Shown: positions 2,664 to 6,077 of the stretch, piece after piece
Layout: every line of letters starts with the position of its first letter
Position numbering within the stretch: the first letter of the stretch is position 1
Virus record (IMG/VR): IMGVR_UViG_2619619129_000001
Source: a virus
Taxonomy: Duplodnaviria > Heunggongvirae > Uroviricota > Caudoviricetes
DNA length: 6,138 nt
Strand: one strand, 5' to 3'
Notes under the pieces: generated by a model
Told to the model about the DNA's origin: nothing
The model's input: the letters and a program-made list of their open reading frames with translations, nothing else
The model's database searches: none
Made by a program: the position numbers and the translations under genes

Positions 2664-3047
2664 ATGCGTGATATTCAGATGGTTCTTGAGCGTTGGGGAG
2701 CGTGGGCGGCTAATAATCATGAAGATGTGACCTGGTCGTCCATTGCCGCCGGTTTTAAGGGATTAATTACTTCAAAAGTAAAATCTCGCCCGCAATGTTG
2801 TGACGATGACGCGATGATTATTTGCGGGTGCATGGCCCGTCTGAAAAAGAACAACAGCGATTTGCACGATTTATTAGTAGATTATTATGTAGTCGGTATG
2901 ACATTCATGTCACTGGCAGGTAAGCATTGCTGCTCTGATGGTTATATCGGGAAAAGGTTACAGAAGGCTGAGGGCATAATTGAAGGGATGTTAATGGCAT
3001 TAGATATCCGGTTAGAGATGGATATCGTTGTTAATAACTCTAATTAA
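2664..3047 (+). CDS. quuD: Late-gene antiterminator Q (127 aa), Cys-rich (CCDDD...CGC...CC)
   Basis: ATG at 2664 with GGAG 8 nt upstream; translation [22 protein letters not shown]... matches the DLP12 Q protein; the track ORF starts 5 codons earlier at a TTG. Confidence 0.85.
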
Positions 3048-3074: not shown

Positions 3075-3105
3075 AAAAATGGGGCGTTGAGACGCCCCCA
3101 AAAAT
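3075..3105 (-). terminator. Candidate intrinsic terminator for minus-strand (nmpC) transcription: GGGGCG-ttgaga-CGCCCC hairpin at 3081-3098 flanked by A-runs on plus (T-runs on minus)
   Basis: Perfect 6-bp GC-rich stem, 6-nt loop; on the minus strand it is followed by ATTTTTAAT. Confidence 0.4.
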
Positions 3106-3186
3106 AAAGGGTAATATATAACAGAAGGTTTATATAGTTAGAAGCAAGGTTGTGCTTCTAAAGGAAGTGGCTTGAGGGAGCCACTT

Positions 3187-3228
3187 ATATGTTGGGGAGG
3201 CAACGCCTCCCGCAACATATCTTTTTCG
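3187..3228 (+). terminator. Candidate rho-independent terminator for plus-strand transcription: ATATGTTGGGGAGGC-aac-GCCTCCC(g)CAACATAT stem followed by CTTTTTCG
   Basis: About 15-bp stem with one bulge, 3-nt loop, then a 5-T run at 3222-3226; sits 8 bp from the nmpC stop codon. Confidence 0.55.
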
Positions 3229-3236
3229 TAATCAGA

Positions 3237-4334
3237 TTAGAACTGGTAAACCAGACCTACAGCAACGATGTCATCAGTGCTTACACCGAGTGCTTTAGTG
3301 AAGTCATTTTTGTCAAGCAGGTTGATTTTGTAATCAACGAAAGTAGACATATTTTTGTTGAAGTAATAGGTTGCACCTACATCAACATATTTGACTAAGT
3401 CCTGATCGCCCCATACTCCAAGATCCTTACCTTTAGATTGCAGGTAAGCAACGGACGGACGCAGACCGAAATCGAACTGATATTGTGCAACAGCTTCGAA
3501 GTTTTGGGCTTTATTAGCAACGAAGTGATCAGCAAATACAGTCATATTCTGGGTTTCAGAATAGGTAGTGGCCAGGTAAATGTTGTTAGCGTCATATTTC
3601 AGACCTGCGGCCCAAACTTCTGCATTTTTACCGGAAGCAAATACTTCAGGAAGAACTTTCCCTGCATTAACTTGAGTGTCGGTACGATCAGATTTCGCAT
3701 AAGTTGCACCGATACCGAATCCTTCGTATTCATAGGTAGCAGAGAAACCGAAGCCATCACCGTTACCTTCAGTGTAGTTATCGAAATCGCTACGATCGTT
3801 TTTGCCTTGGTACTGAGCAGCAAAGTTCAGACCATCAACCAGACCAAAGAAGTCGTTGTTACGATAGGTTGCAACACCAGTTGCACGTTGAGTCATGAAC
3901 ACGTCGGTTTGAGTCCAAGTGTCACCACCGAATTCTGGCAGGACGTCAGTCCACGCACCGATGTCGTATGCTACACCGTAGTTACGGCCGTAATCGATGG
4001 AGCCGTAGTCACCGAATTTCAGGCCAGCGAAGGCAAGACGGGTTTTATCTTTGGAGGAACCTTGAGATTCAGCGCGGTTGCCTTTGAATTCATATTCCCA
4101 CTGACCGAAACCAGTCAGTTGATCGTTGATTTGGGTTTCACCTTTGAAGCCAAGACGGGCATAAGTAGTATCACCATCATCTGCATCATTAGAGGAGAAG
4201 TAGTGCTTAGCATTAACTTTCCCGTACAGATCCAGCTTGTTACTGTCTTTATTATAAATTTCAGCTGCCTGAGCAGACATCGCCATCAGTACTGATGCAG
4301 CTACAGCAGAAATTGCCACTGTTAATTTTTTCAT
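3237..4334 (-). CDS. nmpC: Intact OmpC/OmpF-family outer-membrane porin (NmpC / Lc-like), 365 aa with signal peptide
   Basis: Signal peptide [23 protein letters not shown] then AEIYNKD...; PEFGG loop-3 motif; C-terminal ...GLVYQF ending in Phe; start chosen at the ATG at 4334 (AAGGG Shine-Dalgarno upstream) rather than the track's upstream ATG at 4394. Confidence 0.9.
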
Positions 4335-4480: not shown

Positions 4481-4703
4481 CTATCGAATCCTATTCATGG
4501 CTCTTGGCTGAATAAAAATAAATCTATTAGCCAATTTATATTAACGGCTGTTATTTATAAGTGCTCTATAATTTGAAGGTTCAATTTAAACCGGCTAAAA
4601 ATAACACTGGAAATTATTTGTTGGTTATTTGTTGAGATTTGCTTATGTATTTGTAGTGGTGTTTTCAATACTCGGTAGCATTCTCGCAAATATCATTTAG
4701 TGG

Positions 4704-4731
4704 TTTACGTACGTAAAAAATTGGTTATGCT
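4704..4731 (+). promoter_or_regulatory. Candidate sigma70-type promoter (TTTACG -16 nt- TATGCT) overlapping a 14-bp perfect palindrome; possible late promoter or leader promoter for the lysis cassette
   Basis: -35-like TTTACG 4704-4709, -10-like TATGCT 4726-4731; the spacer contains AAAATTGG, which resembles the phage lambda PR' spacer as I remember it; terminator about 30 bp downstream. Confidence 0.3.
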
Positions 4732-4761
4732 GTTAAGAGTGGTTACTTCGTCACACAGCTT

Positions 4762-4794
4762 AAACCCGCCGTCGAGCGGGTTTTTCCATTTTTT
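4762..4794 (+). terminator. Strong rho-independent terminator on plus strand: AAACCCGC-cgtcga-GCGGGTTT followed by TTCCATTTTTT
   Basis: 8-bp stem, 6-nt loop, immediately followed by a T-rich tract; about 110 bp upstream of the holin start. tR'-like position. Confidence 0.7.
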
Positions 4795-4906
4795 GAGTCT
4801 CGATATTAGCTGATAACCCAATACCTGAGTTATTCACTGACTCCGAGTCTGTTACGTTTCGTAGTATTCCCTCAATTTACACCCGCTTTGTCTGCGAGGT
4901 GGGGTT

Positions 4907-5122
4907 ATGAAATCCATGGATAAGTTAACAACGGGTGTCGCCTATGGCACCTCAGCAGGTAGTGCCGGGTACTGGTTTTTACAGCTGCTAGATAAAGTCA
5001 CGCCCTCACAGTGGGCGGCAATTGGAGTGCTGGGTAGCCTGGTATTTGGCCTGCTGACGTACCTGACAAACCTTTATTTCAAGATTAAAGAAGATAAGCG
5101 CAAGGCTGCGAGAGGTGGATAA
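4907..5122 (+). CDS. essD: Phage 21-type class II holin (pinholin), 71 aa, dual-start motif MKSM
   Basis: Translation [29 protein letters not shown]...[11 protein letters not shown] resembles S21; GAGGTGGGG Shine-Dalgarno; two in-frame Met codons (4907 and 4916); stop overlaps the rrrD start (TAATG). Confidence 0.9.
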
Positions 5123-5619
5123 TGTCGCCATCATTACGCAAGGCTGTAGCAGCTGCTATTGGTGGTGGGGCTGTTGCCATAGCGTCTGTGCTCATCACTG
5201 GTCCGAGTGGTGACGATGGTCTGGAAGGTGTCAGCTACATACCATATAAAGATATCGTTGGCGTATGGACTGTATGTCACGGGCATACAGGAAAAGACAT
5301 CATTCCCGGTAAAACGTATACCGAAGCAGAATGCAAAGCCCTCCTGAATAAAGACCTTGCCACTGTCGCCAGACAAATTAACCCGTACATCAAAGTCGAT
5401 ATACCGGAAACAACGCGCGGCGCTCTTTACTCGTTCGTCTACAACGTGGGTGCTGGCAATTTCAGAATATCGACGCTTCTTCGCAAAATAAACCAGGGTG
5501 ATATCAAAGGCGCATGTGATCAGCTACGTCGCTGGACATATGCTGGCGGTAAGCAATGGAAAGGTCTCATGACTCGTCGTGAGATTGAGCGTGAAATCTG
5601 TTTGTGGGGTAAGCAATGA
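5122..5619 (+). CDS. rrrD: SAR (signal-anchor-release) endolysin, T4-lysozyme-like muramidase, 165 aa
   Basis: N-terminal Gly/Ala-rich weakly hydrophobic segment [20 protein letters not shown], then a lysozyme-like domain (LEGVSY...[15 protein letters not shown]); resembles phage 21 R. Confidence 0.9.
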
Positions 5620-6077
5620 ACAGAGTAACCGCGATTATCTCCGCTCTGGTTATCTGCATCATCGTCTGCCTGTCATGGGCTGTTAATCATTACCGTGATA
5701 ACGCCATTACCTACAAAGCCCAGCGCGACAAAAATGCCAGAGAACTGAAGCTGGCGAACGCGGCAATTACTGACATGCAGATGCGCCAGCGTGATGTTGC
5801 TGCACTGGATGAAAAATACACGAAGGAGTTAGCTAATGCGAAAGCTGAAAATGATGCTCTGCGTGATGATGTTGCCGCTGGTCGTCGTCGGTTGCACATC
5901 AAAGCAGTCTGTCAGTCAGTGCGTGAAGCCACCACCGCCTCCGGCGTGGATAATGCAGCCTCCCCCCGACTGGCAGACACCGCTGAACGGGATTATTTCA
6001 CCCTCAGAGAGAGGCTGATCACTATGCAAAAACAACTGGAAGGAACCCAGAAGTATATTAATGAGCAGTGCAGATAG
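5616..6077 (+). CDS. rzpD: Rz-type inner-membrane spanin (i-spanin), 153 aa
   Basis: N-terminal TM segment [18 protein letters not shown] followed by a charged, coiled-coil-like region; start overlaps the rrrD stop (ATGA). Confidence 0.9.
5836..6018 (+). CDS. rzoD: Rz1-type outer-membrane lipoprotein spanin (o-spanin), 60 aa, fully embedded in rzpD in the +1 frame
   Basis: Lipobox LVVVGC (Cys20) after a signal-like N-terminus, Pro-rich mature part (PPPPPAW...PPPDW); classic embedded Rz1 arrangement. Confidence 0.85.

Follow-up and report, generated by a model that had tools for sequence, protein, structure and literature searches.

We analysed a 6,138-nucleotide stretch of viral DNA (IMG/VR record IMGVR_UViG_2619619129_000001, Caudoviricetes; hereafter the window) and found that the segment at positions 4704-4794, which lies upstream of the holin gene essD, is very probably (with a probability of about 0.85) the cassette, PR'-qut-tR', that controls the late genes of a DLP12-type lambdoid prophage. 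The open reading frame (ORF) list, taken together with a Pfam scan, identifies the window as the late-control and lysis region of such a prophage. The original prediction had proposed a promoter with the hexamers TTTACG and TATGCT, which together with a terminator would have the geometry of a PR'-tR' unit that is read through by Q. The hexamers were confirmed, at 4704-4709 and 4726-4731 with a spacer of 16 bp, and this interpretation of them is supported, since the same hexamers, spacing and hairpin are annotated as pR' and tR' in two records of phage 933W, a cognate Q gene is present in the window, and phage 21 likewise has a leader of ~50 nt. The unit is therefore an already known one: the late switch of the Escherichia coli K-12 prophage DLP12 and of the 933W-type Shiga toxin (Stx) phages.

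At the DNA level, window 4704-4794 is identical in DLP12 and in phage 434B, and the longer interval 4600-4910 differs from K-12 and 434B by just two substitutions, both of them upstream of the element. A BLAST search with 4698-4800 returned 363 phage records; about 40 of these share the whole region upstream of the holin, and in roughly 280 Shiga-toxin phages the match is confined to 4703-4785, an interval that coincides exactly with the promoter and the hairpin. Outside phage records, window 4395-4910 matches 2,661 of 5,426 complete E. coli genomes. The two 933W records annotate the aligned stretch, which is colinear with the window, as a pR' (TTTACG-16-TATCAT), a putative qut and a rho-independent terminator, abutting the Q gene. 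The putative qut is Plunkett's, and the 933W annotators noted a similarity between their Q and the DLP12 one (933W record). The DLP12 literature also places the lysis operon under a Q-type antiterminator (Rueggeberg 2013, as cited elsewhere).

The transcription start has been mapped in one of these homologous units. By dRNA-seq (differential sequencing of RNA) and Term-seq in strain Sakai, Sy et al. (2020) found a distance of 258 nt between the PR' start and the 3' end of the StxS RNA. The Sakai prophage Sp5 and 933W are identical over the 310 nt compared, and in the 933W sequence a stretch of exactly 258 nt begins at an A located 7 nt beyond TATCAT and closes with the final U of the second terminator annotated there. 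Relative to the current Sakai record, both published coordinates are shifted by an equal 142 bases. The base homologous to the Sakai PR' start is A4738, and it is here that we infer that plus-strand transcription of the window unit begins (+1), which gives a leader of about 50-57 nt.

The conservation of the promoter was assessed in two sets of relatives. The first set of loci was collected with an exact pattern taken from the start region and, because such a pattern itself imposes positions -4 to +17 by construction, we added a second set of 80 loci collected via the Q protein alone, without reference to the leader sequence. These 80 loci span the Enterobacterales, including Xenorhabdus, Photorhabdus, Proteus, Morganella, Yersinia, Serratia, Pantoea and others. 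The element was present downstream on the Q strand in 70 of them (nhmmer, E up to 10), and 68 could be paired with their Q gene. Across 74 distinct relatives, the -10 hexamer has an A at -11 in every case, a T at -7 in 73 and a T at -12 in 71, with positions -10 to -8 varying freely; variants such as TAATCT and TATCGT are shared between Q clades. This pattern of conservation is the one that marks a genuine -10 element of the sigma-70 type. The -35-like hexamer TTTACG (4/6 matches), which aligns with the -35 of the annotated 933W pR', is not conserved outside the 933W/QuuD clade or in relatives that carry other palindromes at this position (described below). It is this conservation, rather than the consensus match or the number of sites, that raises the promoter and the terminator above chance. 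A Q21-family cassette would have a sigma-70 promoter, and one is supported here by a strong comparative signature and by a start mapped at the homologous position in Sakai, the consensus match being weak.

The corresponding antiterminator gene lies upstream of the element on the same (plus) strand, at 2664-3047, and encodes a QuuD-type Q protein of 127 amino acids. This protein matches the Pfam family PF06530 (Phage_antitermQ, E=3.5e-53) as well as the solved Q21 structures 6P18 and 6JNX (E=7.6e-7), and is 78% identical to Q933W and 100% identical to K-12 quuD (tblastn, locus L004). A same-strand PF06530 Q gene was also found upstream of the element at every locus with enough upstream sequence.

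A link between this protein and the promoter is suggested by a 14-bp perfect palindrome, TTTACGTACGTAAA, at 4704-4717 (-34 to -21), which reads the same on both strands, overlaps the -35 and occurs once in the window. Relatives always have a palindrome followed by an A/T-tract at the -35 position, with a sequence that differs between them; there are at least 8 palindrome types, and the variants seen in relatives include TTTACGATCGTAAA, GCGTACGC, GCGGTCCGC, TTCGTTACGAA, TGGAATTCCA, TGTTATAACA and TGTAATTACA. In all of 107 loci, and again in 68 independently chosen ones, the type of palindrome goes with the Q clade (these and the Q-palindrome counts that follow are raw and not corrected for shared ancestry). 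Q's helix-turn-helix (residues ~85-105, window 2916-2978) differs from clade to clade in step with the palindrome, whereas the DNA between Q and palindrome is swapped freely among relatives. Within one clade the agreement extends to a single residue, the one that follows 'SD' at the start of the recognition helix: among distinct Q-palindrome pairs, all 26 with T have the palindrome centre CG-AT-CG and 25 of the 26 with G have CG-TA-CG, so that residue and centre agree in 51 of the 52 distinct pairs with G or T there, Xenorhabdus loci with otherwise the same flanks among them.

Because the palindrome changes in step with the DNA-reading helix of Q, it is the probable Q-binding site. Since Q21 binds two direct repeats, an inverted repeat would represent a variant binding mode; no Q21-type direct repeat was found in the window promoter. 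We see roughly even odds that, in the large 933W/QuuD branch of the Q21 family, Q binds a short inverted repeat over the -35 that is matched allele by allele to the recognition helix of Q, with SD-G reading CG-TA-CG and SD-T reading CG-AT-CG, and that this pairing is kept despite the swapping of reverse-oriented cargo between the two partners. The match between Q and palindrome may be new as a result. One genome paper scored a phage with a divergent Q of the Q21 family as 'lacking PR'', which may reflect a failure to recognise a variant promoter and suggests that variant promoters of this kind are not generally recognised.

Downstream of the -10, the most conserved block of the element across genera is TAAGAGTG (4734-4741, -4 to +4), the conservation of which exceeds that of the -10 hexamer itself, with T-4, A-2 and T+3 invariant in 74 of 74 distinct sequences. 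This block could possibly act as a pause element, as a discriminator or as start-site context. At its centre, AAGAGT (4735-4740, -3 to +3) has the A...T signature of a -10-like hexamer, both the A and the T being invariant, and is separated from the palindrome half-site centres by 21.5 and 28.5 bp, near the phage 21 values of 17.5 and 25.5 bp; it overlaps the start site, which is unusual for a -10-like pause element. The other candidate, TACTTC (4744-4749, +7 to +12), adjoins the position of the putative qut of 933W, has no T at the -7-like position and is not conserved as a hexamer in other genera. Either of the two could possibly be the sigma-dependent pause element.

The leader RNA begins with a small hairpin formed by +2 to +6 and +13 to +17 (4739-4754). 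In relatives, 91.9% of the alignment cells for this stem are paired, as compared with 19-70% when the partner columns are slid, and the pair +5:+14, the one pair that co-varies, is found as GC (29), AU (21) and GU (13). The same hairpin is predicted when the window sequence is folded on its own. A stem this near the 5' end can protect an mRNA from decay, and our guess would be that the leader hairpin does so here. The whole 63-nt leader folds no better than shuffled sequences (z = -0.96). We also observed a GCTTA motif at about +21 to +25 (4758-4762) that is kept in most relatives, where 933W has GTCGA.

The leader ends in the intrinsic terminator at 4762-4794, placed between the promoter and the late genes, which we identified by terminator scan, folding and comparison with relatives. 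Its stem (4762-4769 paired with 4776-4783) closes a 6-nt loop, CGTCGA, with a hairpin energy of -11.5 kcal/mol, and is followed by the tail UUUUUCCAUUUUUU. The spacing given in the original prediction holds, with 30 bp between the -10 and the stem and 113 nt between the end of the T-tract (4794) and the essD ATG at 4907. Its description of a textbook terminator with an 8-bp GC stem plus T-tract holds in part: the terminator is listed by the scan and the stem does have eight pairs, but only five of these are G-C and three are A-U, and the U-tract is interrupted. Terminator-like sites number 7 in the window against 5.9 expected, so that the count alone is not significant. Over 67 distinct relatives found by pattern, 96% of the stem cells are paired, with modest covariation (two pairs with double changes). 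Other lineages have a different hairpin in the same place (CCUCGC/GCGGGG, CCCUGCC/GGCGGGG or GGCCUCG/CGCGGGGCU), each followed by a U-rich tail, and a strong hairpin with a U-tail lies no more than 100 nt from the start in 51 of 66 independently chosen loci, the median leader being about 62 nt. Since the terminator scan found no second terminator before essD in the window, the hairpin at 4762-4794 is the only candidate for tR'.

These data are consistent with a model in which host sigma-70 RNA polymerase would start at about A4738 from the -10 TATGCT and the weak -35 TTTACG, and would produce a leader of about 50-57 nt that folds first into the small 5' hairpin and then into the intrinsic terminator. 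Most transcripts would stop there, leaving the holin, endolysin and spanin genes (4907-6077) silent. The Q21-family antiterminator, the gene of which (2664-3047) is split from its target by a porin gene, would bind the palindrome at 4704-4717 over the -35 and load onto polymerase paused in the conserved segment from -4 to +17. Once loaded with Q, the polymerase would ignore the terminator, and the lysis genes and other late genes would be transcribed. Of this scheme, the analysis itself showed the sequence features, the homology to units that are annotated or mapped by experiment, the comparative pattern of the -10, the conserved hairpins, the family of Q and its co-variation with the palindrome; the start site (taken from the Sakai data), the Q-binding site, the pause element and the efficiency of the terminator are inferred.

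A number of observations weigh against this reading. The promoter matches the sigma-70 consensus at 8 of 12 positions, which is below the 9/12 threshold of our promoter scan, so that 4704-4731 went unlisted. The window contains 25 sites of equal (8/12) quality, compared with 32 +/- 6 in dinucleotide shuffles; the consensus match is therefore weak, no better than chance on sequence alone, and because matches of this kind are as frequent in shuffles the promoter call cannot rest on it. No clean -10-like pause element is found at +1 to +12, and the U-tract of the terminator is interrupted by CCA. The 933W sequence has two terminators after PR', at positions 862-884 and 1065-1093 of its locus (L005), and in Stx phages the mapped tR' is the second of these, at +258, the first not being discussed (Sy et al. 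2020, Term-seq). Given that the 3' end of StxS maps to this second terminator, the first Stx hairpin, which is homologous to 4762-4794, is at least partly read through without Q. Nor is Q adjacent to the promoter it is proposed to act on, as a gap of 1.69 kb, filled by nmpC, separates the two. The literature accessible to us yielded no directly mapped 5' or 3' end of the DLP12 copy, and the K-12 Term-seq supplement, in which very short RNAs may be missed, has no entry for essD or nmpC. We also looked for the DLP12 start by way of the primers of a reporter described as spanning '-121 to +650': of the two, the forward one lies at 4262 and the reverse one has no match in the window, and the reporter numbers appear to be relative to the essD ATG rather than to the transcription start. 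Finally, transcription from the essD promoter (essDp) is said to have been reported in 2015 to be stimulated by RpoE and to need the -35 region.

The separation of Q from its promoter is shared with other members of the group. In the window, the gap holds a porin gene (3237-4334, minus strand), annotated lc in phage PA-2 and nmpC in K-12 and 434B, together with its own promoter region and its own minus-strand intrinsic terminator (3081-3098, which is not followed by a T-tract on the plus strand), and an AT-rich spacer lies between the porin gene and the holin region. Homology to Q933W ends at residue ~120 and DNA homology to 933W resumes at about 4703. The interval between Q and PR' is likewise interrupted in most relatives. 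Among relatives as a whole, a distance of either 4-62 bp or about 0.15-2.9 kb separates the Q stop codon from the start of transcription. Inserted ORFs are mostly on the minus strand and lie in unrelated DNA (loci L003, L015, L028, L056, L060 and others). They include a KAP NTPase that matches PADLOC PDC-S20 (E=1e-177), an HNH-like protein that matches PDC-M68A (E=7e-27) and an NA37 protein, as well as several ORFs with no family match. The PDC-S20 and PDC-M68A matches mark candidate defence genes, and cargo that benefits the host or serves in defence appears to have been inserted repeatedly at the Q-PR' junction. According to its record, phage 434B is a viable laboratory phage that acquired the DLP12 Q-nmpC-PR' segment by a crossover in ylcG. 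That a viable phage carries the split segment suggests, indirectly, that the split pair works.

A rival reading, proposed in the literature for DLP12, is that the essD promoter is a sigma-E (RpoE) promoter instead of a sigma-70 PR'. We regard this as very unlikely, because no match to the sigma-E pattern GGAACTT-N15-17-TCAAA/TCTGA was found in 4561-4910 (at thresholds of at least 5/7 and at least 4/5), and because the RpoE list of a genomic SELEX study passes from an entry at 543 kb to one at 581 kb with no peak in between, and hence none at essD; the only peak in that study near the 5' end of nmpC is one of RpoS. Moreover, the known Q proteins load at sigma-70-dependent pauses, and the importance of the -35 region would be equally well explained if the palindrome there is the Q site. 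The original prediction had also allowed for a simple insulator against read-through into the lysis genes. In such a reading there would be a terminator but no working promoter, and the lysis genes would be protected from read-through out of the divergent porin promoter region or from further upstream. This fits with the chance-level consensus match of the promoter and with the AT-rich porin control region directly upstream, but it leaves the conserved -10 pattern unexplained: the A-11/T-7 signature is kept at a fixed distance over 74 distinct relatives, including phages that have no porin, the start has been mapped at the homologous Sakai position, and the element always travels with a Q gene. 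We therefore give the promoter-less insulator only a slim chance. Slimmer still is the chance that the conserved segment at 4738-4758 is a CRP site that regulates the porin gene, as annotated for PA-2 (GenBank J02580, 1986) at L002 1730-1750, which corresponds to the first 21 transcribed bases (+1 to +21). The right half-site, TCACA, is present, but the left half, TGGTT, agrees with TGTGA at only two positions out of five, CCACA stands in place of TCACA in most relatives, and phages and genera that lack a porin gene conserve the block as well. We rejected the PA-2 annotation on account of this poor match to the consensus (TGTGA-N6-TCACA) and of the conservation of the block where there is no porin.

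The remaining possibility is that the short RNA that ends at the terminator acts in trans as a small RNA in the manner of StxS, whether or not it is also a by-product of antitermination control; an independent small RNA had likewise been suggested from the window sequence. In favour of this, the homologous Stx PR' of Sakai is constitutively active and its longer terminated transcript gives rise to a functional, Hfq-binding regulator, StxS; moreover, the window leader ends in a hairpin and U-tail and has a conserved 5' part, which forms a small hairpin of its own. The active form of StxS, however, is a 74-nt 3' fragment of the 258-nt RNA, and the homology of the window ends at about 4785, before the StxS body, with unrelated sequence downstream. 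In addition, conservation begins at -6, upstream of the RNA, which indicates a function at the level of DNA. No Rfam family matches anywhere in the window (E up to 1), and a literature search that included RIL-seq-style names for the spacer found no trace of an RNA. We therefore consider a small RNA function unlikely, and retain the late-gene control cassette as the reading of 4704-4794.

The genes around the cassette follow the order of a lambdoid late region. From left to right, a ninB-like gene, ybcO and rusA precede Q; upstream of these nin-region genes, the window's left end is occupied by an IS1 copy (1-770, with an insA-like ORF at 31-306 and an insB-like ORF at 225-728). The lysis genes downstream of the promoter-terminator unit, all on the plus strand, extend from 4907 to 6077 and comprise the S21-type holin/antiholin gene essD (4907-5122, PF04971), a signal-anchor-release (SAR) endolysin gene (5122-5619, PF00959), and Rz (5616-6077) and Rz1 (5836-6018), as annotated in 434B and K-12. 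Just 5' of the holin, which has a dual start (Met1 at 4907, Met4 at 4916), a 9-bp stem at 4882-4903 pairs the Shine-Dalgarno sequence and recalls the start-choice structures described for phage lambda S; this stem folds no better than shuffles (z = -0.69). PA-2 and many other phages have a 16-bp insertion, CTGCTTTTTTGCGATA, at 4861/4862, downstream of the terminator and ahead of the holin start, which is absent from the window, K-12 and 434B. On the minus strand, the interval 3099-3236 is the 3' untranslated region (UTR) of the porin gene, from stop codon to terminator, to which the ipeX RNA of DLP12 and PA-2 is reported to have been mapped; the porin 3' UTR was included in the search of the whole window that gave no Rfam match.

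The promoter-terminator unit would decide whether the DLP12 lysis genes are expressed, and these genes have been linked in the literature to biofilm and outer-membrane-vesicle phenotypes in E. coli; the homologous unit controls the release of Shiga toxin in enterohaemorrhagic E. coli. If the proposed pairing of Q and palindrome is true, it would constitute a specificity code that determines which Q switches on which late operon, that of stx included, and an allele-matched palindrome would help to explain why Stx output differs between q alleles. For specialists, the points of interest are the Q-matched palindrome, the conserved block at the start region and the cargo hot spot between Q and PR'.

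When compared with known systems, the window is closest to DLP12 of K-12, with its essD promoter and its own Q, QuuD (Rueggeberg et al. 2013 and 2015, as cited elsewhere), with which it shares the gene order quuD, nmpC, essD, rrrD, rzpD/rzoD; in DLP12 nmpC is split by IS5, whereas the porin gene of the window is intact. The pR'-qut-tR' units of 933W, Sp5 and H-19B are about 77% identical to the window over 4703-4785 and agree with it in the -35, the length of the spacer, the position of the -10, the conserved start region and the first hairpin. They differ in that the 933W promoter overlaps the 3' end of Q, from which the window promoter is separate, in the centre of the palindrome (AT as opposed to TA in the window) and at +7 to +12 (TACATT as opposed to TACTTC). 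They also have the second terminator at +258, beyond which tRNAs and stx follow, where the window has the holin. The PR'-qut-tR' unit and 6S leader of phage lambda operate by the same logic, in which a constitutive promoter is combined with an early pause, a terminator and a read-through into S, R and Rz that depends on Q, but lambda Q belongs to an unrelated family and there is no sequence similarity to the window unit. The lambda leader is 194 nt long.

Phage 21 provides a parallel for the short leader. Its PR'21 promoter has no DNA similarity to that of the window, and its Q differs in two respects: Q21 binds two direct 8-bp repeats between the -35 and the -10, whereas the Q-linked element of the window is an inverted repeat over the -35, and Q21 has a long loop within its helix-turn-helix that the alignment shows to be absent from the Q proteins of the window's clade. 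The two systems nevertheless have a Q of the same family, and PR'21 produces a leader of about 50 nt that ends in an intrinsic terminator (Guo 1991; Yin 2019; Shi 2019). The phage 21 record annotates a transcription start site, a Q-binding element (QBE), a sigma-dependent pause element (SDPE) and a terminator at +3 to +50, a short-leader geometry like that of the window, and downstream of this, as in the window, come an S21-type holin and a SAR endolysin.

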